Positions 23,722-50,473 of a DNA stretch of 64,000 nt are shown piece by piece. The notes beneath the pieces are model-generated. The model made no database searches, had not been told where the DNA came from, and was given only the letters and a program-made list of their open reading frames with translations. The stretch's first letter is position 1. The number at the start of each line of letters is the position of its first letter. The translations under genes and the position numbers were made by a program. Source of the DNA: Schmidtea nova (taxonomy: Eukaryota); assembly GCA_044892505.1 (NCBI GenBank), contig CM097884.1, forward strand, positions 106,702,001 through 106,766,000, written 5' to 3'.

Positions 23722-24897
23722 TTAAGAACTTTTCCACTTCTTCAGCCACTCGATTCTTCTTTCTTTCGTTCCTTCTTGCGAATGTAGTTCGACTCGATGA
23801 GGTGATAGAAATCTGATGATTTTATATGGGCCATCGTACTGCATACCATCCTTGTGTCTGTTCTGCGGTTCTTTGCGTACGAGTACCTCCTCCCCCACCT
23901 CAAAAACACGAGTTCCTCTCTTTGTCTTATCCATAGCTCTCATAGTGTCTGCGGCTTTACTCGAGTTATATCTTGCGTCTTCTATCCATTCGCTTCTTGA
24001 TATCTCTGCTTGTTTCAAGTTTGAATGTAGGTTAACACTCCGTCCATAAATTATCTCAAATGGTGATAAGCCTGTAGCACTCTGTCGACTGCTATTTATA
24101 CTGAACTCTATTCTAGGTAGAAGTTCATGCCAGTTTCTCTCTTCACACCCACCTGCCAATGTCGCTGTAATAAGATCTCTTACTGTTCGTATGGCTCGTT
24201 CGGCTAATCCATTTGATTGGTGCTGGTAAGGTGAGCTGAATTCCTGTTTGATTCCAAGTTTCTGTAGTCTCTGTCTTAGAAAATTCCCTTCGAAATTGCG
24301 TCCTCTATCTGTTAAAATGCTCTTTGGTTTTCCAAATCGATAGATCCAACTGTTAAGTATAGTTTTGAAAATTGTCCCTTCGTCTTGCTTCGTGATTGCG
24401 GTCACAGAAATCAATTTACTAAACCGGTCCACAATTACTAACATATATTTTTTAATGGTGTTTTTTTCCATGTAGGCCACATCCATTACAATCTGTTCTA
24501 GGAATTCAGAACTACATCTAGGGATAAATATTTCCTTGGTTCTTGTCTGGTCGATCTTTCTCGTAGAGCAGATATCGCAACATTGTAAACAGAGCTGAAT
24601 TGTTTCTTGCATCTTCGGCCAGTAAAATATCTTTTCCATATAATGGAATAATTTCTTAACTCCAATATGACATAATTCTTCATGTAGAGTTGTTGTTAAT
24701 AAGCCTGCAAAGGTTTCTGGAACTAACATTAAAATATTTTCGTTCTTTTCGACTGTTATTAATCCTCCATCAATTCTTGTATTTTTTACGTTAAATGGGA
24801 AACAATTCTTTTTGTCCCGTGCGCATCCATTTTCTAATATCTCTCGTAACTCTTGAAACCTAATGTCCTTCTGCTGTTGCTCCAATACTTTTTCCAT
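23722..24897 (-). CDS. Gypsy integrase (C-terminal part of pol, frameshifted from RT-RH)
   Basis: HEELCH...CDIC zinc finger, VMD / LTDRG / NGLAER DDE triad, GPY motif. Confidence 0.9.
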   Translation of the reverse strand: MEKVLEQQQKDIRFQELREILENGCARDKKNCFPFNVKNTRIDGGLITVEKNENILMLVPETFAGLLTTTLHEELCHIGVKKLFHYMEKIFYWPKMQETIQLCLQCCDICSTRKIDQTRTKEIFIPRCSSEFLEQIVMDVAYMEKNTIKKYMLVIVDRFSKLISVTAITKQDEGTIFKTILNSWIYRFGKPKSILTDRGRNFEGNFLRQRLQKLGIKQEFSSPYQHQSNGLAERAIRTVRDLITATLAGGCEERNWHELLPRIEFSINSSRQSATGLSPFEIIYGRSVNLHSNLKQAEISRSEWIEDARYNSSKAADTMRAMDKTKRGTRVFEVGEEVLVRKEPQNRHKDGMQYDGPYKIIRFLSPHRVELHSQEGTKERRIEWLKKWKSS

Positions 24898-26885
24898 AGC
24901 TTCTGTTCTTTGGATAGTATATATATATATCGGATTTTTGACTTTCCTTCCTTGGCATCTTCATGTCGTGTTTGACACTGGGAACAAATCATACTTTTTA
25001 ATCTTGATAGCCCATCTGCATTCGAATGTTGTTCACCTTTCCGATATTTTAGTTCAAAATCATATTCAGACAAGTTTGCTAACCATGTTTGAAACTGCGG
25101 ACTGATTGGTGTTTTTGTAGTGTTCATGAAAACCAATGCTTTGTGGTCGGTGCGAATTATGAATTTCTTTCCGTAAAGATATTCTCTAAAATGTATGACG
25201 TACTCATGTACAGCGAGCAGTTCTTTCCTGGTTACACAGTAACCCTTTTCATGTGATGTCATATGTCTCGAACCATATGCTATAACAGATTCTTCTCCAT
25301 CTTCTTTAATTTGGCTCAAAACTGCACCAATTGCTCCAAAGCTAGCGTCTGTGTCTAAGATAAATGTCCTATCTTCTCTTGGATAATCAAGGATAGGTGC
25401 CTCGCACAACCGTTCCTTTAGTGTTTGGAAACTCTCATTGCATTCTTTAGTCCAAATTATATCTTTATCGCATCCAGATGTTGCGGCATATAGTGGTTCT
25501 GCGATTCTGGCGTAGTCTTTAATAAATCTTCGATAATAGTTCGTTAATCCGAGAAACGATCTTAATTGCTTTGAACATTTTGGTATTTCTGCTTTCTCGA
25601 TCTCTTCAACTTTCTTTCTGTTTGTCTGGATACCCTTCTCGTTAACTGTGTGCCCAAGGAAACACAATTCTGTTTTATTGAATTCACATTTTTCTGGATT
25701 TATCTTCAATCCTGCCATTTGAATTCTTCTAAATATTTCCCCTAGTAGCTCATCGTGGTCTTTTTGACTTTTCCCATAAATCAAAATATCATCTAAATAA
25801 ACAACTACCCCTTTGAATAGCATTCCTTCTAGTACTTTGTGCATCAGTCTCTGGAATGTCGCAGGAGCTGTTGCTAGGCCAAACGGTAGTCTGTTAAAGC
25901 AAAATTGTCCTTCTCTTGTACTGAATGCAGTCATTTCTTGAATTTCTGGGGCCAACTCTACTTGATAGTACGCCTGGCCTAAATCAATTGACGAAAATAT
26001 TTTTGCATTCGCTAGACAGTCTAATAAGAATTTGGTATTAGGCATCGGAAATGATTCCTTTTCTGTTATGGCATTCAATCCACGATAGTCTACACACATC
26101 CTGATGGATCCATCTTCCTTCCCTACTATAACTAACGGGGCATTCCAAGGACTCTTGCAACACCGAATAACATTTGCTTTTATTAATTCTTTTATCAGTT
26201 CTTCAATCTTTTTCTCCATGTGCATTGGTTGACGTCGAGGATGTTGCATTATTGGGCCTCCTGTTATCCGCATCTCATGTCGAACTAAATTTGTAAATCC
26301 CAAATCAAATTTCGACGCCATAAATATTCCGCCGTATTTCCTGATCATTCCTTCAATGTCTTTATTATTTTCACTTGCCATCGCCATTAGTGCTTTATTT
26401 ATTCTTTCTTCATCAGTGTGGATTTTGTTTATGTATGAAGTTTCTATATTATTGATCTTCACTAACTTTACTCCAAACTCTTTCATTGTATCAATACCCC
26501 CTATGAATTCTGGCTTGATCTCTTTTACAACCACTACTGTGATAATTTTGGTCTTCTGATTCCATGTGGCTGATATATTCATATATTCCATTGCCTCTTC
26601 ACCTCCAGTTGAAAATACGCCGCATAATAATATAGTACTACGTTGAAGGTCTGGTTTGCCTATTCTCTCCCACAGATTCTTGCTCATGACTGTTACTGAC
26701 GCTCCAGAGTCCCATAACATATCTACTTCTGTATTATTCAACATTATTTTACTCCAACTTCTTCCATCCTTCGTCTGATACATCTCTTCTTCTGCCTCGT
26801 CTCTTCTTCGTTCATTTCTTCTTTCATAATTTATTGCCTTGACTCCACCGACGAAATGAAACCCATGGAGTCGCTGATGTTTTTT
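24834..26885 (-). CDS. Gypsy pol: protease, reverse transcriptase, RNase H
   Basis: LWDSGA, SPWNAP, CVDYR, LPFGL, YLDD, DTDAS, TDHKAL. The frame stays open upstream to the slippery site at ~26880. Confidence 0.93.
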   Translation of the reverse strand, partial: KKHQRLHGFHFVGGVKAINYERRNERRRDEAEEEMYQTKDGRSWSKIMLNNTEVDMLWDSGASVTVMSKNLWERIGKPDLQRSTILLCGVFSTGGEEAMEYMNISATWNQKTKIITVVVVKEIKPEFIGGIDTMKEFGVKLVKINNIETSYINKIHTDEERINKALMAMASENNKDIEGMIRKYGGIFMASKFDLGFTNLVRHEMRITGGPIMQHPRRQPMHMEKKIEELIKELIKANVIRCCKSPWNAPLVIVGKEDGSIRMCVDYRGLNAITEKESFPMPNTKFLLDCLANAKIFSSIDLGQAYYQVELAPEIQEMTAFSTREGQFCFNRLPFGLATAPATFQRLMHKVLEGMLFKGVVVYLDDILIYGKSQKDHDELLGEIFRRIQMAGLKINPEKCEFNKTELCFLGHTVNEKGIQTNRKKVEEIEKAEIPKCSKQLRSFLGLTNYYRRFIKDYARIAEPLYAATSGCDKDIIWTKECNESFQTLKERLCEAPILDYPREDRTFILDTDASFGAIGAVLSQIKEDGEESVIAYGSRHMTSHEKGYCVTRKELLAVHEYVIHFREYLYGKKFIIRTDHKALVFMNTTKTPISPQFQTWLANLSEYDFELKYRKGEQHSNADGLSRLKSMICSQCQTRHEDAKEGKSKIRYIYILSKEQKLWKKYWSNSRRTLGFKSYERY

Positions 26886-28144
26886 CCGTCTTCTCTCAAT
26901 GTAGTATATTTTTCAGGAACATTGTATCTATCTTCCATATCGCTGTGAGCCATTCTGAAATCTTGGCTGTTTTCGGTGTAATCTCTTCTTTCAGATTTGG
27001 AATCTTCTTCTTCTATGCACGCTATTCTTTAATATCGACGGGGCACCTCTTTCCGTAACGAAAAACAATCTCGGAATCCGTGTCCCTCTTTACCACATAT
27101 CAGGCATTTATTTCCCAGTGGGCACTCATATCTTTTGTGTCCCCTTTCGCCACAGCAAAAACAATCACCTACTGTTAATTTTGGAGCCGGTGCTTGTGGT
27201 AGTCCTCTACTTTCGTTATAGATCCTTCTTGCTATATTCTTCATGGAAATTGTTGGCAGTTTCCTTTCTGAGCCATCTTGGATTCTAACATTTCTCAAAA
27301 ATTGTTCTTTTGGGAATTGTTCTCGTCGACCGCGGTTATTTTCTTCGAATTGTATCGGATGTTCATCTCTTCTTGGTCTGTGATGACTAAATGGGTCTTC
27401 TGATTGTCTTCTTTGTGATGGTGTAGGTCTGGTATCTTGAGTATTCTGTTGAATTCTCATTTGCCCTCCATCAATCACGCTGGCATATGTTCTTTTACCA
27501 ATTGATTTAATAAATTCAGTTTTATTGCTTCCCTTTTGGTTACTCTCAAAAATCTTCGCCAATGATCTCGTTTCTTCAATTTTTGTTTCTGGTTTTGTCA
27601 ATAATATTTCCCTCAATCTCGCATCACGTGCTTTATTTGCGATGAGATCTTGAACAATATCTTCTTCTGATCGTCCTGAATTTATAACTTCAGCTAAAGC
27701 TTTCCTTAATCGAATCTCGAAAGCTGCAAAACGTTGATCATCTTCCTGTTCCAGAACTGCCAATTCTCTGATTTTGTCAGTTATTGACTTCGTAATTGTG
27801 AAAGTATTTAGGAACCAAGTTTTGGCTTTCACATCTGTTGTTTCTGTTTCTCTGACGTTTCCCCACAATGTCTTAGCTTCTGCCACTAATAACAAATCGA
27901 AGGTGCTTGTCAATCGCTGTCCATTTGTCAACAGCCATTCTTCTATGTCTCTGATCCATTCTTCTGCTTCTTTCGATCCTCGTCCATCATATCGTCTGAT
28001 ATTCAGAGTGAGCATATCTTGGCATGATTTTGGTAGGCATTCCATTAACGTCTTTGTTGATTTCGAAACTGCATTGACATTCTGATTTTCGGCGTGGTCG
28101 CCAGTTAAATCAAACTCGGTTTTAAAAGACTGAACTTCCTTCAT
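26831..28144 (-). CDS. Gypsy gag with two CCHC knuckles; in-frame TAA at 27029
   Basis: CFCCGERGHKRYEC and CLICGKEGHGFRDC. The frame continues past the TAA (RIACIEEED...GKNISDSMG...RQ*). Confidence 0.85.
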
Positions 28145-29759
28145 AGATTTATTTAATTAAAATTTTATAAAAAGTGCCAAAATACTCAATTATTAAAACA
28201 CCAGTTAATTTAAATATCCAACTGATGTTATAATAAATTAAAAGATTTTTATAAAAATACACTTTATATTTATATAATCCTAAAATCCATAATTGATTCA
28301 GCGAAAATTAACCCAAATAAACCTAAAAAATCCTTTTTGCAAATCATAACATCCATTTCATTCATTAGTAACATTCATATATAATACTAAATAAAAATCC
28401 ATTCATTTCTCAACACACGCACTACATTGTTTCAATTATTAACATCTACCAGCATCAAACACCCATAAAATACACACCCAAAATTCATTTGATAACATGT
28501 GTCTGCATCATACATCCAGAAAATCTCACAAGCACTCATCCAATCTCACCCACCACTAAATTACTTGTTTTCATCCAGCATTCAATTCAACATACAGACA
28601 CATACAATAACATATAATCACATACAATCTCCTTGCAACTATCACCATGAAAATTCATAATAAACCTGTAAAAGTAACACAACATACAAACTCGAAATTA
28701 TAGCATCCCACATCATACATAAACATGCATACCTCCAACAAGACAATGCCAAAGTTTCATTCATTCAACAACCACAAAACATCATATTCATTTTATTATT
28801 TATTTTTATATTATAAAATAAGTCAAAAACTTCCGGTAAAAATCAGAACCAACACCCACAAAAAACAAAAACGATATTTATTTTTATTCAAAAATTTCAG
28901 TTAAAATAAAGTCAATAATTAACTATTAGTCTTTATTATAAAGTAAATTAAGCTTTCACATAAAATCAATAATCACGAACAATGGTTATTTTTATTATAA
29001 AGAGAATAAAAATTGTTTATCGATCAACGTTGCGCAAATACCGAGGAAAACTGATTGTCTGAGGAGTGAATGAGAAATCTCAAAATAAATTCCACTCAAA
29101 AACAGAAATTTGTGACGAACTATTAAAGGATTTCTTCGGAAAATGCCGGATCCTATTACTGATAATCCTGTTCACTTGTATTCTCATGGCTCTGACCTTT
29201 ATAGTTTTAGTTGATGAGAAGTGAAAAGATGCTTTCTGAATTCCGGTATTCAATTGGGAGGATATTGGCATAATATTTAAACAATTCATTTAAATATATT
29301 CCGATAGAAATCAATAGCTGATACTTAGTAGGAAGATTCGTAAATGTTTTATCGATTCAGATATTCCTTTAGAATTAGATAACTCTATTGGCAGCTTAGG
29401 ATTGACATTGAATAGTGAAATTGATTGGAACCATTGATCCCAGCTTCCGTGTTCAGATGCTATGAAAGTAATTAATTTCAGATTATCGATTTGAATTAAT
29501 AAATTTACTTATTTTTGCCAATAAATGAGCTTTCATAGAGAATTGGAGCAGCATTCAAATTTCCTAAAGGTTAAATAAAAGTTTAAACAAATGGAATATT
29601 AATAGAAATTTAAAGCAAGAAAATTATTTCAAGATATAAAAATAGGGAAAAACCTAAAGTAGAAATAAAATTATTTTCGTAAATTAAAAATTAAAGTTTT
29701 TATTTTATTTTAAATATGGGATAAAATTTTATTTTAGAATGCTTTAATTAACAATTACC

Positions 29760-35715: not shown

Positions 35716-35869
35716 AAAATTATGTAGATAACTGAATTAATTTATTAATGTACCCCGCCCTACCAAAAGTCTCCAGTCAGACAGTTATTTGCATATTGCA
35801 GTTTATAATGAACAGCACTGGAAACAAATGTCACAAACACACACGAATACTGAATGTCTGTAGTGCTGA

Positions 35870-36703
35870 GACAGTTGGTACTTCGTTTTATTACCTTTCA
35901 TCTGCATAACAAGGTGCACTCGTTTAGGAATTGTACTGACCAATTTTGCCAGGAAATCAGGGGAGATATGTGGCCATTCCTCATACAGATGCGTTTCCAG
36001 TTCGGAGACGTTACGTGTAATGGGAATCCTTTTGCGAACTCTTCTACCAAGGACGTCCCTCAGAAACTCAATAGGATTCAGATCAGGGCTTTGTGGAACC
36101 AAATCCAAAACGTTGATGCTGTGCTGCAGAAAAAATTCCTTCATAATGTGCGAAGTATGGATTGGTGCATTATATTGTTGGAAAATGAGCCTCTCAATTT
36201 CTGGGAGAAAGGGAACAAGCTCATTTTCCAGAATGACATGGTATTCCATTGACGTCATGTGATTACTGCACTTAACTAGAAGGCCAGTTCCACGAGCTGG
36301 GAAAAGACTCCAAAACATGATGGAGCTTCCTCCATATTTCACAGTTGGCTGAATGCAGTCAAGGTGAAATCGTTCTTCTACACGACGCCAGCAGAATTGC
36401 TGTCCATCAGATTTGAAAAGAGTGAAACGTGATTCATCACTCCAAATGACTGAGCGCCATTGTTCAACTGTCCAACTCCTTCTCTCCTGGCACCATTTAA
36501 ACGACTTCGACGAATTCTTTCTGTAATCAAAGGCTTCCTTGCGCAGTATATATCTTAGAAACCATGAAAATGTAATGCGCGACGAATGGTGGACATTCTG
36601 GGATGTACAGGGCCAGTGTTAAATGTGGACACTAACTTGGACAGAGGGAACCTTCGATGAGCCACCACAAGTTGTTTCAGCTGCCGTTGTTTACGGATGC
36701 TCA
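35870..36703 (-). pseudogene. Tc1 transposase, C-terminal part
   Basis: IWSDESRF, TVKYGGSSIMFW, FQQYNAPIH (catalytic D>Y), QSPDLNPIE; stop and frameshift present. Confidence 0.9.
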
Positions 36704-37841
36704 TGTTGAGGTTCCAAATATTTGCTATTTGCAATCTCAACTTGTTATTGGGGTGATTCTTATATAAATATCAAAAGCAAAGTTTGTTTTTCAAAATTTT
36801 ATTAATACAATAAAATTACTTTTTATTTCGTTTACAATTGTCTACGAATAACTCAAATTCTTTATTACACAAATTTAAAAAGAAAAAGTCGTATCAAATC
36901 AATTCTTGCAATTGAACCTATTGGGTGACTGTTATGTAGTGCGTGCTATATTTAATTGTGGATCCAATGTTTCTGATCCGGGTTTTAATAAGTTTTTCAA
37001 GATTGCCTTGAAAACTCAATTTGCGCTAATTTTAAATCTTGATTTTACACTAGATTTTAAAGCTAGGATTTTTTTGGGCCTCTTTACTGATTTTTTCTTT
37101 AGTTTATATAGTAAAATTTGGTATGGATAAATAATTTAATTTCCGGTCTGATATTAAAATATTATTAAATTTAGTTTTCAATTTATTCTATACTCTGCGA
37201 TTAAAATAATTATATTTCAATTTCCGTTCTTGTCGTGATATTAAAATTTTCAATTTATTCTATACTCTGCGATATAATTATATTTTAATTTCCGGTCTTG
37301 TCACGATATCAAAATTTCCAAATTATTTCGTATTCTGTGATATTAAAATATTATTTAGATTTGATTATTTTTAAACAACTGAATTAAATTATTTTATTTA
37401 TTGATCTGTTTGTTTTATATGTATATACAACTCATAAAATAATAAAAGGAATAAAATACACATCAAGATAAAAGGAATAAAATACACATCAAGATACACC
37501 TATTTTATATGTACATGCAAATCATAAACTACACATCAAGATATATTAAAAGAAAACAATTGTTTGTTGAGAAATGTCACAATAATAAAATGTCACAATC
37601 ATATTAATTTTCTTGATTTCTGTGATGGGAGTTGCAATCTTTGTTGAGAAATGTCACAATAATAAAATGTCACAATCATATTAATTTTCTTGATGGGAGT
37701 TGCAATCTTTGTTGTGTGGCTTGGATTGGTATTCTGTGTATTGGGATTCCGCGTAAATGTTGATCCTATAGCTGTTAGGCCCTGTCCTATAATATTTATT
37801 TAGGACAAATGCTTGGATGGGCTTCCCTCGATCATCCAACA
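36704..37841 (-). repeat. 3' LTR of the large Gypsy element
   Basis: TGTTG...CAACA; same length as 49332-50469 with no mismatch seen by eye. PPT GGGAGGAA adjacent (37842-37849). Confidence 0.95.
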
Positions 37842-39651
37842 TTCCTCCCAGGGCCGTCAAGGTAATGTCCTCATTACCTTTTTCACTCAGGACCATTTCA
37901 ATTTCTTTATCCTTTAATTTCATTATTGTTCTCTTGAATCCTTTCTTGATTGCCAGATTTAGGGTATCATCTTCCTCAATTCGTCTTCCGAAATGGGTAC
38001 ATAATTGTTTTTCCGTTATCTCTTTTTGGTCGGCACTTATAATGAAGCTAGGTTCTTCCTCCTCTTCTATTTCCATTTCAATGTCTGGTTCTGGTCCTAA
38101 TTCGTCTTCTGCTTTTATTTTACTCTCCATTTCTTTTGTGAAGTCTTCTTCGTCGTCTTCCTCAACTGAAAAATACTCTTCGTCCGAATCTAAATCGCAT
38201 ATGTCTTCTCTTTCTTTGTATTTTTGTATTAGTTGCGGTTCGTTTTTGATCATTATTTGATTTTCTGGTGGTCCTTCTTCTTTTGTAATCATTAGGTCGT
38301 CATCACCATCTTCATGTATTGTTTCTTCCATATCTGAATTTTCATCCATTATTATACTTTCTTCTTCGCTTTCCTTCAACTCTTCCATACATGATTTTCT
38401 GTTTTGCATCTGGTATAGGTCTCCTTTCATTTCGATATCGTCTGTTATTGGTGTATCACTTTGTAACGATGTTGAATCTGCTGAATTCCATTTTATTATA
38501 GGTTCCCATTTGTCTTCTACTATTCCATATATTACCTTTAATATTGTTGTTGTCTTTCTGGCAGAAAATGGCTCACTTTCTACTAATGCTTAATTCAGTC
38601 TCTTATCTTTGTACCATCTCTTATGGTATTTAATCACTTGGTAAGCTAAGTTAGATAGCTTAATTTTGAGTGGATCCACGTTTTTCACGAATGAGCACAT
38701 AAATTTATCTCCGGCCATTTCTCTCATTCCTGCAATGTTGTCTAGACCAAATGTTAGCATTTTTAATTTATCTATCATATCAAATCCTATGATTATTTTT
38801 CCCCACAACAGCTCTCTAATATCCCATAGAGCCTGGTACTCATCTTCATTTCCGACGATACTTTCTTTATTAACCATTGTTTTTTCTGTGCAGAAGTTTT
38901 TTATCTTCGTTCTTGGGGTTATCTTTTTGTTGTATATAATTTCACCGTTGTATTTTCTTATACATACTTCTACTGGTCGCTTGTTGTCATTTTTATCAAT
39001 TGCAAATTTTGCATCCAAGAACATAATTAGTTGGTGTCTCTCTTCTGTGGATAATTCATTGTGTGTGAAAGAGATTTTTTCATTTATCCAGCTTTGATCG
39101 TACCAAGGTTTTGAAGGGATTGGCGGCATTGATTGGAATGGATTTGATATCAGAGGGATATAGAGAATCTCGATTCCTATGACACACGGTAAGTTGTTCA
39201 TTTGGATTATGAGGTGATTAAAATCGTCTGGCATACTTCTGTTGTTTGTAATTGTTTTGATGATGATTGAACAATTACTTGTTGTGATTATTGGTACTTT
39301 ATGTTGGCAAATTGATACCTCGGTTTTTGTCATGTGGAATAGGATTCTATGTGGTACCTTTTTTCCTTCGATTACCGCTTTGTCGACATTAAGATGTTTT
39401 TCAAATGTGCCGATTAGGTCTTTTAATTTTGTTCGTCGAGCTTCATTAAATTTGATAATGTGTAGTTCTCTTTCTTCAATTTCCACTTTCATATCATTTG
39501 GGATGCATACTTGGTTTGGGAAGCTTCTGATTGTGATTGGATTTCCATCGGTACATATTTTGTTTTGTAGGGTTTTGTAAAAGTTTAGAGGGTGTTTGTT
39601 GATCATAGCCACATAGTTCATAGATCGAGAATAATTTGGCTCTGATTGCAT
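37681..39651 (-). CDS. ORF2 accessory protein (~656 aa if the TAA at 38590 is bypassed): unknown N-domain, degenerate DEDDh exonuclease fold, acidic tract, C-terminus in the 3' LTR
   Basis: The 502-aa and 249-aa ORFs share a frame and are joined by 53 open codons after a single TAA. Motif spacing parallels REX4/ISG20. The likely start is MQSEPNY at 39651. Confidence 0.7.
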
Positions 39652-40030
39652 TGTTAATTGAAGATACAAGAATCGGGATATTGATTGACAATAAAACACT
39701 AAGAATCGGGATATCGACTGATAAGTTAGTAAACGATAAAACACTAAGAATATAGATTGATAATGAGATCGAGATATGATTTTACGACTTGATTTGTGAT
39801 TGGATTGAAAATTGGAACGATTTGATTGGGAGTTGGTTTGATTGTTTTGATTGTGCTGAGGATTTGATGTAAAACTGGCTTTATTGGGTTGTTTGCCAAA
39901 TGGGTGACTTGTTTTTCTAAAAATAAAATGTAAATTTTTATGTTGAGAGCGTATTTCAGGTTTAACCTTATACGCTATTTTATAGATACAGATATATGTG
40001 ATTTTAATATATATTATTGACCAATTTAAC

Positions 40031-40240
40031 TTATACCAATGTAGACCTCGAATATTCACCTGGTATATATTTACCCAAATGGAAATGCCCTGGTACATTT
40101 CTGACCAGTTGGCTCCGATACCGCTGCCTTTTCCATTTGTACTTTTTATAAACTTGTACGCTAGTTATTAAAGCTAAAACTGCTAATGCTATTATTGATG
40201 TTGTGATGACATAAAAAGGCCAATGTGGATTTTTATCTTT
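40031..40240 (-). CDS. In-frame extension of the polyprotein beyond the TAA: TM helix, basic stop-transfer, tail ending STLV
   Basis: *KDKNPHWPFYVITTSIIALAVLALITSVQVYKKYKWKRQRYRSQLVRNVPGHFHLGKYIPGEYSRSTLV*. Confidence 0.7.
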   Translation of the reverse strand, partial: KDKNPHWPFYVITTSIIALAVLALITSVQVYKKYKWKRQRYRSQLVRNVPGHFHLGKYIPGEYSRSTLV

Positions 40241-43200
40241 TTAACGAAATGCTTGTAGTTCCTCTAAGTTATGTATCACTATTGGTCTTCCTTGCCTTAT
40301 TTTGATAGGTTCTTGTTTTTGTTTTTTGGCATTGTATTGTTTTTGGAGTTTGGCTATTCCAGTGCTTGTTGGTATTTCGTTTGTATGTAGTGTGGTATTT
40401 AGTCTATTATTTGATGTCGTTGTTGTGCTTTTTGTTATGTTTTGGTTTTTTATTATATCCTTGGGTAATTGTTCTGTTTTTATCTCTTTGCATCTCCATG
40501 TTGTTGTATCTGTGTTTCTCTGTATGCAGATTTTATATATTGTATTAGGTGTTAGTTTTGTGAAATTAATATAGTTTCCTCTTTCAATTTCGTTGGTTGT
40601 TCTGTCGTCCTTTCCTTTTATCATCTTTGGGTTTTTTCCATTCGTTGTTTGCATGTATAAATCAATTACTCCTCTATTTATGATAAATGCTCTAACTTCG
40701 TTTGTTGATATTTTTATTAATACTCTGTCAAATTCTATTGTTTCGGTTGAGCCAACAATTGTTATGATTGTTAAGAAGATAGCTGATATTATTAGTTTGT
40801 TATGAGATCTTAGATTATACTTGTGAGGTTTATCTATCGTGACCTCGGCTTCCGCCAACTTGCATCTGTTGACATGTACTACTATTGGATCCTCGTTTTT
40901 ATGCTTTTGTAAATGTAAATTCTCATTTATTACTTTTACTACTTCATATGGACCTTTATATGGTCTTGCTAATTTTGTTGTCTTTCCCTTTCCTACTTGT
41001 GGTGACATAAGTCTAACCTTATCACCTACTTTAAAGTTGTGTGGTTTACTATTTTTGTCGTAGTCGGCTTTGTATTGTTCTTGTCTATATTTGACTTTTA
41101 GATTGGCTACTTTATACACTTCTTGCAGTTTTTCCTGCATTAGTGTGACATAATCTGGTGCATCCAAATATTGTGATACTCGAGGTTCAAATATTGTATC
41201 TATTGGTGTTGCTGGTTCTCTTAAAAACATTAAATAATACGGCGAATACCCTGTTGTTTCGTTTGGAGTGATATTATGAATGTATGTGCATTGACTTATG
41301 TATTCGTCCCAATCATTTTGATTTTTTCCTACAAAAACAGCTAGTCTGCTTAGTAATGTCCCATTAAATCTTTCTACTAGTCCATCAGTTTGAGGGTGAT
41401 ACGCTGTTGTGTTGATCTTTTGCATGTTAAAAATATTAGCTACTCGTTTTATTAATTCACTAGTAAAATTTGTTCCTTTATCTGTTAATAATCTTTTGGG
41501 TGTGCCTATCTTGAAAATAATTTTTTCTATAAGCAATTTAGCAACTGTTTCTGCTGTTTCGTCTTTTGTTGGAAATGCTTCTGCCCATCTAGTAAAATAA
41601 TCACTAAATACTAGTATATGTTTATTCCCATTAATTGTAGTAGGTAATTTACATAGAAAATCCATTGCACATAGTTCCATTGGTGATGTTGTTGCTGGAA
41701 TGGGGTGTAACGGCGCTTTTGTTTTTGTACCTGTATTTTTTCTTGTTGCACATATTGTACACGCGTTACACCATCTCTTAACATCTTTCTTTAGTTCTTC
41801 CCAGTAATATTTTTGTAATAATCTACTTGCTGTCTTTCTAGATGATAAGTGACCTCCTAATGCTCCATCGTGATATTGTAGTAGGAGTATTTGTCTTAAT
41901 TTCTGAGGTACTACTATTAATTGCTTACCGTTGAAATCTTCTATTACTACTAATTTCTTTGATATTTTATATTTTGAATTGTTTTCTTTTCTGATTTCAT
42001 TCCTTATTCTATTGATCTCTGGGTCTTTCATCTGTTCCTCATATATATCTATTGGCTTTTCTGCTACTAGTGCAAATATTTCAAGTGCTCCTAATTCTGG
42101 TATTCTTGATAGTGCATCTGCGTTTTTATTTATTCTACCTGGTTTATATATAATTTTTAGGTGCATGTCTTGTATTTTCATTGCCCATTTAAGTAATCTA
42201 CTTGATGTATCTTTATGTTTCCATAAGCCTTCTAATGGTTTATGGTCTGTTCTTATTATCACTTCAGTTCCGTAGATGTATGGTTTGAATTGTTTTAGGG
42301 CAAATACTATTGCGTAACATTCTTTTTCTATTGTTGAATACCTCAGCTGTGCTCCTTTTAATGTTTTACTGGCATATGCTATTACGTAATCTTTCCCTTT
42401 CTCTTCTTCTTGGCCTAATACTGCTCCTACGGCTTTCCCGCTGGCATCTGTCATTACTATAAATTGTTTTTCGAAATTTGGGTATCTTAACACTGGTGCT
42501 GTTATCAATCTTTCTTTTAGTTTGTCGAATGCTTCTTGATGTTCTTTTGTCCATTTCTTTTGTATCTTGTTAACTTTATTGTTAATTTCTTGTACTATTA
42601 ACACGTCTTTGCATTCTCCTTTTGTTTTAATTCCCTTTGTTAGTTCTATTATAGGTGTTGCTATCTTTGCATAATCTTGTATGAATTTACGATAGTATCC
42701 TGTTAAACCTAAAAACCCTTGTACCTGTTGTACTGTTTTTGGTATTGGGAATTTCTTTACAACTTCTATTTTTTCTGGATTTGGTTTTATCCCTTCTACT
42801 GTGACTATATGCCCTAAAAATAGTGCCGAAGACTCTGCCCACTTACATTTGGTTGGTTTAATTTTTATCCTTGCTTTTCTTAGTCTCTCAAGTACGTTTG
42901 TTATATCTTTTAGATGTTCCTCGAATGTCTTTGATGATATTAATATGTCATCCATGTAAACTGCGCAGTGTTGTACATTTACTAATATTGTGTTCATTAG
43001 ACGTTGAAATGTGGCTGGCGCATTAGTTAATCCGAAGGGTAATCGTGTGTACTCATATAAACCATCCTCAATAACAAATGCTGTTTTTTCTGCGTCCCCT
43101 TCTTCCATTTGAATTTGCATATACCCCTTATTCGCATCAATGACTGAAAAATACTTAGCATCCCTAAGTTTATCATATTGCTCTTGTGCTTTTGGGAATG

Positions 43201-46200
43201 GATATGAATCTTTTACTGTTACATCATTTAATTTACGATAGTCAATGCACATTCTTATTTCTCCGTCTTTCTTTTTGACGGGTACAATGGGTGATGCCCA
43301 CTGTGAAAAACTTTGTTTTATTACACCTGCGTCTTTTAATTCTTTAATTTGTCGCTTTATCTCCTCTCTTAGTTTGTATGGTACGCTATATGGTCTTTGT
43401 TTTATTGGTCTTGCATTGCCCGTATCTATTACATGTTTGATTATGTCAGTATCTCCTAAATCAAATTCATGTTTTGCAAAAACATCGCTGTATTCATCTA
43501 TTAGTGTCTGTAATTGTGCTTGTTGTGTTATTGTTAGGTATTTATTATTGATTTTCACTTTGTCGTATGATTTTATACTATTTGTCTTACTAGGTTCGAC
43601 CACTCTTTTGCCGTTATCATTTATCACACTTGTCTCGCTGACTTCATACGTTTTCTCTAATTTGCCTTTGAATAGTTTTCCCAATTTTGTGCCTTTGTGT
43701 ATTTTTATATTACATTTTTCATAATTCGCTATTCTTAATGGGATTATTCCCTTTTTTGGAATTACGCATTCATTAGTTAACATTATATTTTGTGTAATTG
43801 CCGTTTCTGGCTCGAAAATAAAAGTGTCCTCACTTTTGACGTTAACTTTTATGGGGATTATATGATCACACTCATATTCTAGTTCGAATGCTTCTAATGC
43901 AACAACTTCCGTGAACTTGGACTTATGTTTGATAGCTTTTCTTTTAATCGTGTTATCCGTTAAGTCTATGATGCAGTTATTCAGCTTGTTGAGTATATCG
44001 ATCCCTAGTATACATATGCTATTGCATTCTTGTACTACTTTAAATATGTGGTGTATTACTTGTTCTGATGTTTCAACTACTAATTCAATATCTCCTTTTA
44101 GTGGAATGTAGTGTGCTGATAGTGTTACTACTTTATCCGTTGTTTTCATAATATTTCTCTTTTCACCATCTGTAAGTTGATCTTCCCTAATTAGGGACGT
44201 TGCTGCTCCAGTATCTACTAGTGCATTTATGATTATATTGTTTATAATTATTTTAAGTCTTGGCCTTGCTTCGTTTGCTGTCTCTAATTGCTCCATCATT
44301 TCGACTTCCAAGCTATAACAACCATATATTTTTTTGGGTTCACAGTAACAATTCTTACTTTCTCTAGGAATTTTAATCTCTATATTTTCTTGTAACTCTT
44401 TTAATTGTTCTCTTTGGTTTTCATATAGTCCTTGTTGTGGTGCATTTCCTTCATGTGATATATGCGTTTTAACTATTTCCTCATTGTTTTCATCATCTAT
44501 CAATATTTGCCTTTCTTCATTCCTTTGGATTTTTATTAAACGTATTTCTTTATCATGTTTTGCCGTAATCAGGTATTTGGCTACAAACGGGCATAAACAT
44601 GCTAGTAATTTATATGAATTTCCGAATACTTGTTTCAGCTGTCGTAGTGATACTAAAGAAGAACAAACCATTTTTAGTAAAGCAACCGTATAATAAATTC
44701 CTAAAATTGTAGAGAACATGTTTCCAAGGACTGCAAAATATCCCCATATACTATATAATACTTTGTATGCTACTTTTTTGAAATACTCTTTTGATAACAA
44801 CACGTCAAAATTGTAATTTCCTCCGTAACTTCCTTCGATAATTTTGTTTACCATTATTGACAGTATTCTTTCTTTTTCGTTTGAAAATAACATGTGTTTT
44901 CTTGCACTTTCTATAGCTTCTCTCGTATATATGCCATTGCTATATATATCGTTGATTTCTTTAAACTCCAATCTTTTTTCAAGCTCTATGAGTTCTAATT
45001 TGAGTGGTTTCATCGCCTCTTTCCTATCTGACATAGATATCCACATTTCGTCATTTATTTTGTATAATGGATCCAATAAATTAGTGCATTTTTCTATTTT
45101 TCTTGGTACATATGTTTTTTCTGTTAGTATTCTAGTAATTGGTTGAAGGTATACCCTTTCTCCTTTGTATATTACTGGTAACTCATTTGTGCACTGATTG
45201 TTTGTTGCCAATGATACACTAACAGGTTTGCATTGAAATGTCTGTATCACTTCTCCTACTATCCTGGCAAATGTTCCTTCTTCTGAGAAGATTATTGGTG
45301 CCATCAAATCTGGGTTTGTTACCGCGACTGCCATTTTTGTCCTTAATATTTCTCTGTTGAGTTTGCAATCGCTCATGATTGTTGATTGATATACTTTATC
45401 TAATTGCACTAGTTGATTATGATAGAAAAAATCTATTTTATTGTTGAAATATGATGCGAGTTTGACGTCGAATTTATTTACTTTTTGTTTTGCATCTTTG
45501 ACTTCTTCTTTGCTTATGTATATCCCTTCATAATTAGTTTGTATTATTTCCTTACCACATTTTACACTTTTCCTTTTACTAACAAACCTCATTGCTTCGT
45601 TTTCAGATTCTGACATATATATTGTTGGTGTATCTTTTTCTTGTACAATTGTTGTTTTCCTTTTTTGATCTCTCACCCTTTTTGAGTCTACTTCTGTGAA
45701 CTGTTTTCCCTTGATTTCCCTAAATTTTAATGATTTTAATTTTGTTAACTGACAATCATATTTATCTATTTTGTATATTAGCATTGATTCTCCTGTATCG
45801 CAATAAGATTCTTCTAATGTACAAAATTTGTATATCATCATTTTCTTTGAGCTGCTGTCGAATGATGCTTTGAACTTTCTCAGTTCTACCATGTAGTGTC
45901 TCCTTACTACAACATTACTCAGTTTTTCGCCCCATATTGTATATTCTCCTCCTTCACAATATCCTCCTTTTGATGTCCATCCCACGACATTTACATCTTG
46001 TCTCATTTTTGCCCCTATCCTTGCTTCTAATTCTATTCCATTATGACCGCTATATTTTACTTTTTTTGTTTTAAATGCATCTTCACACTCTATTGGTGAC
46101 AATATTACTGCTTCGGGTGTCCACGTAGGTTTTAACACTGTTCTTGCCCCAACATGACATATATATGCTTCCTCCTGATACTTTACTATGCACTCTTTGG

Positions 46201-49090
46201 CCTCTGTATGAATAAAGTCTGATTCTTGATAAACATGGAATATTTGAGGCTCTGACATGATTAATTTAGTTGGATTTGCTTCAGGGCAATTTTCAACATC
46301 TAACAGTGAGTATTTTTGTCCCCACTTTGGATTTTGACAATCATATGCTACCATTGCATTGCCTCCCTTGATTAAATCTAATAACAAAGTGATAATGACT
46401 ATTACTATGGAGGTTATCGATTTACTCTCTGTCTTTGGTTTTACTGTTGCTTTCTTTATTAATTGTTTTATTACCTCATCTGTATCACTCTCTTTATTCG
46501 TCGTATCTTTATCATATAATACTTTCCATCCTCCTTTCTTTTTTATCCATGGTATTGCCTCTACTTTCAATCTTTTAAACATTATTGTTGCTACTTTTTC
46601 TAATTGCTCTTTTGGATTTTCCTTTATGAGCTTTTTATATCTTGCGGCCAAGTATGCCATGGCCGTTATTATTTTATCTTTATCTATCCCTGTATTAAAC
46701 ATGATTTTTAACACTGTTTTTTCATTTGCTTCCTCTGTAGCTAGTTCTTTAGTATCCTTTTTAATTAACATCATCCTTTCAGTTATATTTTCAATAAGTA
46801 CTGTTGGCTTTGTTTCTGGAAATAGCTTAATATTCATTGCTTTTATTACTTCTTTTATTTTGTTTACGTCATTATTATCGTCTTGATACTCTGGTTGTTC
46901 ATGTTTATGTTGATTTGCAATCTCTCTTAATCGTTCTGCTGTCTTCCTATTCTCCGATTTTTCTATTATTTCTGATTTTCGAGGTCTTCCTCTACCTCGT
47001 TTTGATATTTCTGCATCTTTTGTTTTTGCTTCCTCAGCTATTCTTTCTATTGTTTCTTGTAAGTTACTATACTTTTCATCTATAGGTTTAAATATAATTT
47101 CTTCATCCATTACTGATTTCTTTGTTTCGCTAGGTGATTTATCCCATAGCCTAAATAATCTATCAAAATCGTTTTCTTCATTTATACTCAACTCAACCGA
47201 CGGTACTGGCGTCATTATTTCATTGATCATTTGTTTTTCTACTGTGGCTACCACAATATTATCACTTACTGGGTTTATCCCATAATCGATTAAGTACTCG
47301 TCACTTAATAATTCTATTCCGTTAAAATATAATTTTATTACATCTTTCTCTCCTATGGTTCCTGGCCATTTGGCTCTTACCATTCGTTTTAATTTGCTCA
47401 CTTTAGTGCAAGTATGCATCTTTTGTTTAATACTAAAAAAATAATTATCATTTGATTCAATCGTTACATTTAGTGTTTCATGCAATTTTTCATTTTTTCT
47501 TATATATTCTCCATAACATTTCAACATCTCTTTTATTTCTATTTCTAATTCAAATACTCTCGTTACATTTTGTCTCTTTACCATCATTGGTATCAAATTT
47601 CTAAGCTTGTCTAATTCAATCCCATTAACTTGTATTTTATTGATTATTCTCAGTGTTTCGTTATCCTCAAATGGTTGTTTATACAATATCTCTTTAAATT
47701 CTTCTATCAATTCTTTTTGTTTATTTTCTTCTGTGAGAAATATTTCATCTGCTTCTCTAATTTCTTTTAACTCATCATTATCGATATCTACTTCATTTGT
47801 AAAAGTACTAAATTCATTTATAGACATTTCAAGCTTTCTCTCAATAAGTCTTCCATATTGCGTTTTAAATTCTTTTAATTCTTCTCTTAATATGTTTATT
47901 TCTTTATTTGCTGATTCAAGCTCAGCGCTATTTACCTGCTTTATCTCAGGCTCATTTTTAAATCTTACTCTTATCGGTGAATCTGCTCGTGGTTTATTAT
48001 ATACCTTTGCTAGGTGACCATACTTTTGGCAATTGTAACATTTTATTTGTCCATTAAAATTCACTTTATCCCTACCATCATTATTATAAGTATTTCGCCT
48101 CACTGGGCTATCTTGTCTATTTCTCGAATTATCTCTGTATCTATTATCTCTTCTATTATATTCGAAGCGACTGTCTCTATTATTTCTATTATATCCACTG
48201 TAACTGTTATAACCAGAGCGATTATCTCTAAAATTATTATCTCTGTCAAAACGGTTGTCTCTAAAACTATCTCTATTATTATTCCCTTTATAGTTATCTT
48301 TAAAATTATCTCTATTTCTATTATCAAAATTTTTATTTCCTGGACTGTTAAACCTTCCCTTGTTTTCAGGTGATTGGCTTCTATTAGGACTAAATTTTCT
48401 TCTATTATTAACAAAATTCAAATATAATTGTTTCATTTCTTCCGAAGGGATACTATCATCTTTACTTTTCAACTCAGGTTTTACCTCAAGTTGCTTTTCA
48501 ATTTCTACAGCGTCTATCTCTGGTCTAAATCGATCTCTTTGTATTGCTTCTATGCGTTTTGCTTTTTGTACTAATTCATTTAAGTCTTCATATTCAATCG
48601 TAATTAATGCTTTGTATAAATATTTTTGGATTCCGTTCCAAAACTGATCCTCGATTAACCTACTAGTGTGATCTCCTGCACCAAATGCCTTTTTTGCTAA
48701 TTCTGTTATCGTGTATATATATTCACCTACTGATTCTCTTGCTCCTTGGTATCTACTTCTAAATTTTTGAACATTTATTTTTTGTAAGTCTCTATCTATT
48801 ACTATTTCTTTTCTAAGGTTTGTAACTAACTCTTGATAATTAATGCCTTTACATGCCAAATTATTGTATGCTTGTAATGCGTATCCTTTTAAGTATAATG
48901 GGATTCGTTGTTTTAATTCATTTGTTTTCCATCCGCAAGCCTCTGCGTATTGTGCGATTTCGGCAAAAAAGTCGTCGAACTTTTCAGGGTCTCCTTTATA
49001 TGATTCTATTGGTAGTGTTTTTATAAAATTATGACTGTTTCCTATGTTATCGTTATTACTGTTGTTACTACTGCTTGTACTATTACTCAT
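40241..49090 (-). CDS. 2949-aa polyprotein: Gag - Ubl - AT-hook - Bcl-2-like - envelope glycoprotein - PR - RT - RH - IN - FN3
   Basis: Gag N-terminus (YKGDPEKFDDFF..GW), CYNC..GH, LYFNG..L.DYGI, RGRGRPRK, WIKKKGGW, AYDC..Cys-rich..TM, LVDTGA, YMDD, TDAS, HHCC, DDE, GPY, LTPNTIYKICI. Confidence 0.95.
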   Translation of the reverse strand: MSNSTSSSNNSNNDNIGNSHNFIKTLPIESYKGDPEKFDDFFAEIAQYAEACGWKTNELKQRIPLYLKGYALQAYNNLACKGINYQELVTNLRKEIVIDRDLQKINVQKFRSRYQGARESVGEYIYTITELAKKAFGAGDHTSRLIEDQFWNGIQKYLYKALITIEYEDLNELVQKAKRIEAIQRDRFRPEIDAVEIEKQLEVKPELKSKDDSIPSEEMKQLYLNFVNNRRKFSPNRSQSPENKGRFNSPGNKNFDNRNRDNFKDNYKGNNNRDSFRDNRFDRDNNFRDNRSGYNSYSGYNRNNRDSRFEYNRRDNRYRDNSRNRQDSPVRRNTYNNDGRDKVNFNGQIKCYNCQKYGHLAKVYNKPRADSPIRVRFKNEPEIKQVNSAELESANKEINILREELKEFKTQYGRLIERKLEMSINEFSTFTNEVDIDNDELKEIREADEIFLTEENKQKELIEEFKEILYKQPFEDNETLRIINKIQVNGIELDKLRNLIPMMVKRQNVTRVFELEIEIKEMLKCYGEYIRKNEKLHETLNVTIESNDNYFFSIKQKMHTCTKVSKLKRMVRAKWPGTIGEKDVIKLYFNGIELLSDEYLIDYGINPVSDNIVVATVEKQMINEIMTPVPSVELSINEENDFDRLFRLWDKSPSETKKSVMDEEIIFKPIDEKYSNLQETIERIAEEAKTKDAEISKRGRGRPRKSEIIEKSENRKTAERLREIANQHKHEQPEYQDDNNDVNKIKEVIKAMNIKLFPETKPTVLIENITERMMLIKKDTKELATEEANEKTVLKIMFNTGIDKDKIITAMAYLAARYKKLIKENPKEQLEKVATIMFKRLKVEAIPWIKKKGGWKVLYDKDTTNKESDTDEVIKQLIKKATVKPKTESKSITSIVIVIITLLLDLIKGGNAMVAYDCQNPKWGQKYSLLDVENCPEANPTKLIMSEPQIFHVYQESDFIHTEAKECIVKYQEEAYICHVGARTVLKPTWTPEAVILSPIECEDAFKTKKVKYSGHNGIELEARIGAKMRQDVNVVGWTSKGGYCEGGEYTIWGEKLSNVVVRRHYMVELRKFKASFDSSSKKMMIYKFCTLEESYCDTGESMLIYKIDKYDCQLTKLKSLKFREIKGKQFTEVDSKRVRDQKRKTTIVQEKDTPTIYMSESENEAMRFVSKRKSVKCGKEIIQTNYEGIYISKEEVKDAKQKVNKFDVKLASYFNNKIDFFYHNQLVQLDKVYQSTIMSDCKLNREILRTKMAVAVTNPDLMAPIIFSEEGTFARIVGEVIQTFQCKPVSVSLATNNQCTNELPVIYKGERVYLQPITRILTEKTYVPRKIEKCTNLLDPLYKINDEMWISMSDRKEAMKPLKLELIELEKRLEFKEINDIYSNGIYTREAIESARKHMLFSNEKERILSIMVNKIIEGSYGGNYNFDVLLSKEYFKKVAYKVLYSIWGYFAVLGNMFSTILGIYYTVALLKMVCSSLVSLRQLKQVFGNSYKLLACLCPFVAKYLITAKHDKEIRLIKIQRNEERQILIDDENNEEIVKTHISHEGNAPQQGLYENQREQLKELQENIEIKIPRESKNCYCEPKKIYGCYSLEVEMMEQLETANEARPRLKIIINNIIINALVDTGAATSLIREDQLTDGEKRNIMKTTDKVVTLSAHYIPLKGDIELVVETSEQVIHHIFKVVQECNSICILGIDILNKLNNCIIDLTDNTIKRKAIKHKSKFTEVVALEAFELEYECDHIIPIKVNVKSEDTFIFEPETAITQNIMLTNECVIPKKGIIPLRIANYEKCNIKIHKGTKLGKLFKGKLEKTYEVSETSVINDNGKRVVEPSKTNSIKSYDKVKINNKYLTITQQAQLQTLIDEYSDVFAKHEFDLGDTDIIKHVIDTGNARPIKQRPYSVPYKLREEIKRQIKELKDAGVIKQSFSQWASPIVPVKKKDGEIRMCIDYRKLNDVTVKDSYPFPKAQEQYDKLRDAKYFSVIDANKGYMQIQMEEGDAEKTAFVIEDGLYEYTRLPFGLTNAPATFQRLMNTILVNVQHCAVYMDDILISSKTFEEHLKDITNVLERLRKARIKIKPTKCKWAESSALFLGHIVTVEGIKPNPEKIEVVKKFPIPKTVQQVQGFLGLTGYYRKFIQDYAKIATPIIELTKGIKTKGECKDVLIVQEINNKVNKIQKKWTKEHQEAFDKLKERLITAPVLRYPNFEKQFIVMTDASGKAVGAVLGQEEEKGKDYVIAYASKTLKGAQLRYSTIEKECYAIVFALKQFKPYIYGTEVIIRTDHKPLEGLWKHKDTSSRLLKWAMKIQDMHLKIIYKPGRINKNADALSRIPELGALEIFALVAEKPIDIYEEQMKDPEINRIRNEIRKENNSKYKISKKLVVIEDFNGKQLIVVPQKLRQILLLQYHDGALGGHLSSRKTASRLLQKYYWEELKKDVKRWCNACTICATRKNTGTKTKAPLHPIPATTSPMELCAMDFLCKLPTTINGNKHILVFSDYFTRWAEAFPTKDETAETVAKLLIEKIIFKIGTPKRLLTDKGTNFTSELIKRVANIFNMQKINTTAYHPQTDGLVERFNGTLLSRLAVFVGKNQNDWDEYISQCTYIHNITPNETTGYSPYYLMFLREPATPIDTIFEPRVSQYLDAPDYVTLMQEKLQEVYKVANLKVKYRQEQYKADYDKNSKPHNFKVGDKVRLMSPQVGKGKTTKLARPYKGPYEVVKVINENLHLQKHKNEDPIVVHVNRCKLAEAEVTIDKPHKYNLRSHNKLIISAIFLTIITIVGSTETIEFDRVLIKISTNEVRAFIINRGVIDLYMQTTNGKNPKMIKGKDDRTTNEIERGNYINFTKLTPNTIYKICIQRNTDTTTWRCKEIKTEQLPKDIIKNQNITKSTTTTSNNRLNTTLHTNEIPTSTGIAKLQKQYNAKKQKQEPIKIRQGRPIVIHNLEELQAFR

Positions 49091-49331: not shown

Positions 49332-50469
49332 TGTTGAGGTTCCAAATATTTGCTATTTGCAATCTCAACTTGTTATTGGGGTGATTCTTATATAAATATC
49401 AAAAGCAAAGTTTGTTTTTCAAAATTTTATTAATACAATAAAATTACTTTTTATTTCGTTTACAATTGTCTACGAATAACTCAAATTCTTTATTACACAA
49501 ATTTAAAAAGAAAAAGTCGTATCAAATCAATTCTTGCAATTGAACCTATTGGGTGACTGTTATGTAGTGCGTGCTATATTTAATTGTGGATCCAATGTTT
49601 CTGATCCGGGTTTTAATAAGTTTTTCAAGATTGCCTTGAAAACTCAATTTGCGCTAATTTTAAATCTTGATTTTACACTAGATTTTAAAGCTAGGATTTT
49701 TTTGGGCCTCTTTACTGATTTTTTCTTTAGTTTATATAGTAAAATTTGGTATGGATAAATAATTTAATTTCCGGTCTGATATTAAAATATTATTAAATTT
49801 AGTTTTCAATTTATTCTATACTCTGCGATTAAAATAATTATATTTCAATTTCCGTTCTTGTCGTGATATTAAAATTTTCAATTTATTCTATACTCTGCGA
49901 TATAATTATATTTTAATTTCCGGTCTTGTCACGATATCAAAATTTCCAAATTATTTCGTATTCTGTGATATTAAAATATTATTTAGATTTGATTATTTTT
50001 AAACAACTGAATTAAATTATTTTATTTATTGATCTGTTTGTTTTATATGTATATACAACTCATAAAATAATAAAAGGAATAAAATACACATCAAGATAAA
50101 AGGAATAAAATACACATCAAGATACACCTATTTTATATGTACATGCAAATCATAAACTACACATCAAGATATATTAAAAGAAAACAATTGTTTGTTGAGA
50201 AATGTCACAATAATAAAATGTCACAATCATATTAATTTTCTTGATTTCTGTGATGGGAGTTGCAATCTTTGTTGAGAAATGTCACAATAATAAAATGTCA
50301 CAATCATATTAATTTTCTTGATGGGAGTTGCAATCTTTGTTGTGTGGCTTGGATTGGTATTCTGTGTATTGGGATTCCGCGTAAATGTTGATCCTATAGC
50401 TGTTAGGCCCTGTCCTATAATATTTATTTAGGACAAATGCTTGGATGGGCTTCCCTCGATCATCCAACA
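49332..50469 (-). repeat. 5' LTR of the large Gypsy element
   Basis: Matches the 3' LTR and is followed by the PBS. Confidence 0.95.
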
Positions 50470-50473
50470 CTCA

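Follow-up and report, generated by a model that had tools for sequence, protein, structure and literature searches.

The window (the whole 64,000-nt stretch of Schmidtea nova DNA analysed here) carries on its minus strand a Ty3/gypsy element of 13.8 kb, arranged as Gag-env(gB-type)-pol in the layout of Burro and the errantiviruses. The 5' LTR (49332..50469, minus strand) and 3' LTR (36704..37841, minus strand) are identical, each 1138 nt long with TG...CA termini; a 4-bp target-site duplication (36700-36703 and 50470-50473) flanks both LTRs, and a PBS-like sequence starting TGG lies 2 nt downstream of the 5' LTR. The TG...CA LTRs, short duplication and PBS-like sequence are those of a Ty3/gypsy element, the Pfam order of the coding region (gag upstream, then PR-RT-RNase H-IN) is that of the Metaviridae, and the gB-type env lying in frame between gag and pol gives the GAG-ENV-POL layout of gB-type errantiviruses and Burro-like elements. 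Assignment to Burro/GYPSM1 proper was rejected (13.8 kb here versus >30 kb, with MATH, BIR and ankyrin domains returning no Pfam match in ORF1 or ORF2); the element shares the Burro core layout and is not filed as Burro. The insertion site (35803-36703 and from 50470) is a Tc1/mariner-like transposase copy, its motifs judged by eye, that now bears the 4-bp duplication. The closest relative of the window copy (L002) lies on the same contig ~64 kb away and shows 3 differences over 3075 aligned nt, a pair that could have arisen by either local retrotransposition or segmental duplication.

A minus-strand ORF of 2973 codons (49162 to 40244) holds the post-integrase module at its end, in the same frame; the single polyprotein ORF as a whole spans 40034..49090 (minus strand) and is interrupted by one stop in this copy. 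The order along the chain is Gag/zinc knuckle, Ubl-like, BCL2-like, gB-type env, PR, dUTPase-like, RT, RNase H, IN and, lastly, an FN3 membrane protein. Pfam matches the fusion protein (E 1.3e-87), RVT (1e-35) and rve (1.3e-9) in one frame, along with zinc knuckle, protease and RNase H; the Bcl-2 match is weak (2.2e-5, below cut-off), and the Ubl-like and dUTPase-like labels, which have no Pfam match, are given from position and the description of Burro. The first glycoprotein, a Monjiviricetes/gB-type fusion protein (44663..46420, minus strand; PF24664, aa 920-1580), possesses its own internal signal (46420-46355) and transmembrane (TM) segment (44767-44663). Between Gag and env, aa 575-885 of ORF1 (~47440-46500) comprise a ubiquitin-like stretch, an AT-hook-like RGRGRPRK (46999-46976) and a BCL2-like domain, as in Burro, and this segment is 39-50% identical to its counterparts in sister families.

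The integrase terminates, after its GPY motif, in YNLRS (40819-40805), and is directly followed by a predicted internal signal sequence (40748..40804, minus strand; hydropathy, Kyte-Doolittle 19-mer 1.88). Cleavage likely occurs after V-G-S, where small residues occupy the -3 and -1 positions of the presumed cut by eye (VNS, ANA and ASA in sister families). Beyond this lie a single FN3-type ectodomain of ~90 residues (about 40466..40741, minus strand), a variable stalk (about 40283..40474, minus strand), the premature stop (40241..40243, minus strand) and 69 further codons; these hold the TM helix (40151..40222, minus strand; Kyte-Doolittle 2.23, the most hydrophobic 19-mer window of the entire frame) and a cytoplasmic tail (40034..40150, minus strand) made up of a basic/aromatic juxtamembrane block (YKKYKWKRQRYRS, 40150-40112) and a C-terminal T-x-V of class I PDZ type (STLV, 40045-40034). 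The signal, FN3-like region, stop, TM, basic stretch and STLV named in the original prediction could thus all be located, each in frame with the 2973-codon minus-strand ORF, and its central claim of a second type I membrane protein after the integrase is borne out by this anatomy, by the 28 genomic copies, of 150 scored, whose frames run for 3054-3082 aa without a stop, and by selection on the post-stop part (see below). Its “Thr-rich stalk” holds in part: the stalk of this family is Thr-rich and basic, but at only 22% Ser/Thr (with 19% Lys/Arg), and sister stalks are short and basic, not Thr-rich. An outer membrane-proximal block, I-x-N-[LW]-E-E-[LF]-Q (40244-40282, minus strand), is kept among sister families despite their FN3 domains being only 30% identical, and is possibly an amphipathic or oligomerisation helix.

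An AlphaFold2 (AF2) model of the ectodomain, made from an alignment of 21 natural rows, is a seven-strand sandwich with pLDDT 85.4 and pTM 0.76 (superseding an earlier single-sequence model, 5 residues short, of pLDDT 63). The seven-strand, ~90-residue beta-sandwich that characterizes FN3 is present in this predicted model, and comparisons of structure agree with it: every one of the 10 best Foldseek rows is a chain containing FN3 (E from 2.2e-3 to 4.3e-3, with no row <0.001; TMq 0.53-0.60 for the rows listed), and VIA-align against 48,161 chains places FN3-type domains in all of the top 20 rows and, by title, in ~44 of 50, with IFNAR2, Sevenless, fibronectin, ROS1 and irisin in the top rows. 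The best VIA match is a Dscam FNIII domain (76 residues aligned, rmsd 2.8) with a Z of 8.4, which is at the edge of values that common sandwiches give; likeness to the FN3 domains of Dscam, NCAM2 and ROS1/Sevenless spans Z 7.5-8.4. Pfam fn3 (PF00041) reaches 13.5 bits against a gathering cut-off of 25 (E 0.085), and is the commonest weak match among the 21 members (9 of these, best E 0.019, below cut-off). PDB profile searches with the module gave nothing relevant, and a BFVD structure search with the weaker model (pLDDT 63) gave no E <0.001. The FN3-like region of the original prediction is consistent with all three of AF2, Foldseek and VIA, and the ectodomain likely has an FN3-type fold, as modelled.

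ESM features point, as a lead only, to FNDC5/9/10-type proteins (scores 0.85-0.89), and host FNDC5/irisin, FNDC9 and FNDC10 share the arrangement signal, FN3, stalk, TM, short tail. Unlike a host FN3 protein with nameable orthology or donor, the module is only 10-18% identical to its top structural matches. The proposal that it had been captured from a host gene found no donor: phmmer over 1.84 billion representatives returned one match, a tandem-repeat sequence (P0016) judged to be chance, and word-index searches returned P0001 only (one through its integrase end) or, in one case that counts as weak evidence, nothing. There are 108 fn3 matches in the genome, none of them inside a polyprotein-length frame.

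We turned to natural copies to rationalize the stop at 40241-40243. A DNA search for close copies (40 of 286 candidates scored) yielded 30 loci, one being the window copy itself, and the stop site is a sense codon in 29 of the 29 others; it is likewise open in all 18 of the older copies that cover it (20 more diverged copies fetched). The exact 26-nt stop context has 1 match genome-wide, and a pattern with the stop codon left free has 183, of which 100 were listed and 0 carry the stop. ORF2 of the window copy contains another private stop (38590-38592), at which all 27 of the other copies that cover the site are open, and over 3.9 kb (38450-42350) the window copy shows 6 private differences, two of them nonsense, despite LTRs that are identical over 1138 nt; these changes probably arose before insertion, either as mistakes of reverse transcription or in a defective parent mobilised in trans, or else are assembly errors. 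The stop is a private nonsense change of the window copy, found in this copy alone and not conserved in active copies as a programmed readthrough signal is. Because of this we reject the earlier suggestion of a leaky stop giving secreted and anchored forms, an explanation that is next to inconceivable: in its favour is solely that the frame runs on cleanly past the stop, and against it are the confinement of the stop to 1 copy, the second private stop in ORF2 of that same copy and its 6 private differences in 3.9 kb.

To estimate selection, pN/pS was pooled from two pairs of natural copies that do not overlap, using proportions without correction, which makes the estimate conservative wherever synonymous sites are saturated. 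The integrase gives 0.10, the FN3 region 0.48 (CI 0.33-0.71; p 5e-5), the stalk 0.65 (CI 0.41-1.06), the cytoplasmic tail 0.25 (CI 0.14-0.41; p 2e-7) and the whole post-stop part 0.30 (95% CI 0.20-0.44). The post-stop part is under purifying selection, and the TM extension that had been predicted from a single interrupted copy is conserved in frame. Sister families came to light through a pattern drawn from the end of the integrase (511 matches, of which 100 were listed, with 30 + 20 loci examined) and allow the rates of the different parts to be compared. Four of 5 loci share 85-86% identity in RT, and the fifth, a broken copy, 74% over a part of it; identity is 66-71% in the gB ectodomain and 69-72% in the cytoplasmic tail, whereas it falls to 27-31% in the FN3 domain. 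Among older subfamilies, gB is 94-98% and FN3 82-84% identical. Since FN3 identities trail those of gB, RT and the tail, the outer domain is the fastest-changing folded part of the polyprotein, with the inner tail held. This rapid change, at a pN/pS still below 1, could reflect relaxed constraint instead of host engagement.

More distant relatives extend these comparisons. A search for the gB family, in which 68 of 3412 candidates were scored, uncovered a second clade in the genome, with frames of 3393-3401 aa and a Pol ~43% identical to that of the window element; 20 loci were fetched, and among those displayed a signal, a ~270-residue ectodomain, a TM and a short tail follow one another. A further protein of 4029 aa (P0001, from a cluster of 20) has a like layout with three internal ectodomain repeats. 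An RT-RNase H tree, which took in our own loci and P0001 only, resolves three lineages ~1.0 change per site apart, RT-RH identity between lineages being ~50%. P0001 also holds three aspartyl-protease-like domains (regions aa ~1900-2030 and 3350-3450), one ahead of the main protease and one between the integrase and the second signal; the latter, by its placement, could free the integrase from the membrane.

The class I PDZ ligand pattern is [S/T]-x-hydrophobic at a free cytosolic C-terminus (ELM). Tails of the window clade end in STLV, STSV, STQV or STKV, and those of sister families in STLC, such that position -2 is fixed, -1 is free and position 0 is Val or Cys; the T-L-C ends of the closest sister families match the looser class I pattern only, not T-x-V. 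In the second clade ETFV closes 16 of 17 stop-free tails (ETIV and ETYV in related subfamilies), and ETSWV closes 15 of 15 listed members of P0001. Altogether 13 distinct terminal pentapeptides in the two clades fit the class I pattern, plus TSWV in P0001, the exceptions being broken copies (L061, L066, L083 and L108). Random frame ends in the window (n=1885) fit [S/T]-x-V at 0.8% and the looser class at 5%, making it unlikely that two further lineages match the tail motif by chance; the PDZ-type C-terminus read from the window copy is kept across lineages. The ectodomains behave otherwise: pairwise alignment among the three lineages is no better than shuffles, and the P0001 ectodomain gave a chance match only against the genome. 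Given these shuffle-level alignments, a common origin of the three lineages' modules, and an FN3 fold for the ectodomains of the other two lineages, are inferred from position, layout and weak ESM matches (<0.9).

How the module is expressed bears on what it could do. The young subfamily, the second clade and P0001 all lack a Met where the signal begins. A search of 12 loci for acceptor-like sites, by the crude rule of a YAG with >=9 of 12 pyrimidines, covered the stretch reaching 300 nt upstream and 180 nt downstream of the HVNRC motif and found none in any of the 12. Both results favour synthesis of the module within the polyprotein, which is the probable route, and make a separate spliced message for the FN3 protein less likely, as far as so crude a rule can tell. 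Translation of one chain would then proceed with the first internal signal sending the gB ectodomain into the ER, the gB TM bringing PR-RT-IN back to the cytosol, and the second internal signal placing the FN3 domain in the ER, where signal peptidase would cut to release the FN3 protein; the element protease would have to free the integrase from the signal stub, and the final TM would leave a free C-terminus in the cytosol. The predicted topology (Gag cytosolic, gB lumenal, Pol cytosolic, FN3 lumenal, tail cytosolic) requires that a mildly hydrophobic stretch past the gB TM does not cross the membrane. Because Pol is fused behind it, gB would be without a free C-terminus before processing, and so it would fall to the second protein, made 1:1 with Gag, gB and Pol, to supply a PDZ-type handle.

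We propose, at about even confidence, that the FN3 protein is an accessory envelope glycoprotein which engages host surfaces and is retained at cell contacts through host PDZ scaffolds. This reading follows from the second protein alone having both a predicted free cytosolic C-terminus and a PDZ-type motif, and from the precedent of HTLV-1 Env, whose PDZ motif binds Dlg at T-cell contacts (PMC3185783; also PMC3395148). By analogy, both would be surface proteins of retroelements that end in a PDZ motif of class I type and are associated with cell contacts (the contact role here being predicted); the HTLV-1 motif, as those sources describe it, sits on the fusion protein itself, whereas the motif predicted here lies on a separate FN3 protein. 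The PDZ-type tail would gather budding or contact sites at junctions while the FN3 domain, in what may be an attachment or receptor-like role, binds a partner on the host surface, and the element would thereby reach adjacent stem or germ cells more easily. A division of labour between fusogen and attachment protein is familiar from herpesviruses and paramyxoviruses; it was not found for retrotransposons in the literature searched. A broader proposal, which we hold more tentatively and at somewhat less than even confidence, is that flatworm-type Gag-env-pol retroelements are two-glycoprotein retrovirus-like agents, combining a conserved gB-type fusogen with a fast-evolving, host-like FN3 attachment protein whose PDZ-binding tail directs assembly to junctions, from which the element would pass straight into adjacent stem or germ cells.

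The same anatomy might instead belong to a host-modulating decoy on the surface of the expressing cell and not to a particle protein, i.e. a receptor or adhesion mimic competing for a host ligand or PDZ scaffold, and so acting on immune, apoptotic or polarity signalling or excluding further infection. We consider this a real but unlikely alternative. It sits well with the BCL2-like, Ubl-like and exonuclease cargo, and with the apoptosis- and ubiquitin-related cargo of Burro elements (PMC6431247); the combination of one FN3 domain, a TM and a short tail is reminiscent of FNDC5/9/10 and of cytokine-receptor modules (ESM leads <0.9), the VIA rows include irisin, IFNAR and IL receptors, and a fast ectodomain would suit an arms race. 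The module is, however, encoded as one chain with Gag, gB and Pol, unlike regulated accessory ORFs (ORF2 and the Burro accessory ORFs), and the phmmer and word-index searches found no specific host receptor homolog.

Alternatively, the module might bind and trigger the gB-type fusion protein directly, as herpesvirus gD/gH-gL and paramyxovirus attachment proteins do with their fusogens. In favour are its predicted co-translation 1:1 with gB and its occurrence in all three of the deep gB-bearing lineages examined. The rate contrast speaks against such a partnership: an FN3 domain ~30% identical where the gB ectodomain is ~70% identical is a poor fit to a fixed interface, as is an ectodomain whose length varies from one domain to about that of three, and we regard this role as improbable. 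A host-gene fragment carried along as a passenger, with no function of its own, is highly improbable as an account of the module: pN/pS is significantly below 1 in both FN3 (0.48) and tail (0.25), unless the alignments are biased, and lineages with an RT-RH ~50% identical have preserved the frame, the signal, the TM and the terminal motif. In its favour stand a near-neutral stalk and a function that is putative.

The preferred accessory-glycoprotein reading can be set against what is known of this class of element. In the parts examined, Chary and Hayashi (eLife, PMC13524379) describe gB-type GAG-ENV-POL errantiviruses from Platyhelminthes, Nematoda and Bryozoa, their six Smed elements measuring about 14.5-18 kb, and the window element resembles these in its Ty3/gypsy pol, gB-type env between gag and pol, LTRs and many near-identical copies. 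It differs in its second glycoprotein, which those parts do not mention (term matching of the main text, with fibronectin also matched in 7 supplements); the only post-integrase module discussed there is the chromodomain. Burro/GYPSM1, the planarian giant gypsy-like elements, encode one polyprotein of Gag, Ubi/SUMO-like, BCL2-like, env, PR, dUTPase-like, RT, RH and IN according to Arkhipova and Yushenova (2019, PMC6431247), an order that the window element follows through IN; Burro exceeds 30 kb with MATH, BIR and ankyrin cargo, whereas the window element measures 13.8 kb, follows IN with an FN3 membrane protein and has a single ORF2, and term matching of that paper gave no mention of FN3 or fibronectin. 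The element class is therefore already known, and we found no description of a post-integrase FN3 membrane module in the literature searched.

Herpesvirus gB-type fusogens need partner glycoproteins. Errantiviruses have been described with gB alone, and at stake is how env-bearing invertebrate retrotransposons choose and reach their target cells. What is added here is the refutation of readthrough, the contrasts in selection and rate, a confident single-domain model and a survey of tails in three lineages; a membrane module joins the known post-integrase cargo (chromodomain, ankyrin), and the FN3 protein, being small, expressible on its own and conserved in its PDZ-type tail, would permit host partners to be fished for without virus.

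Downstream of the polyprotein, ORF2 (37681..39651, minus strand) ends inside the 3' LTR and encodes a degenerate homolog of ISG20-like DEDDh exonucleases with an acidic C-terminal part. It is homologous to the ORF2 of the second clade (L082:6090-7535; 28%, E 8e-17), which matches ISG20L2/ISG20 exonucleases (E 5e-7) and whose N-terminal part gives a faint cupin match (E 0.13). The window-family ORF2 looks catalytically dead from its sequence, because motif I is without the expected acidic pattern. Elsewhere in the window, a second gypsy element (23592-28223, minus strand) is env-less, with identical 121-nt LTRs and separate gag-like and pol frames, and its RT-RH is 43% identical to that of the large element.
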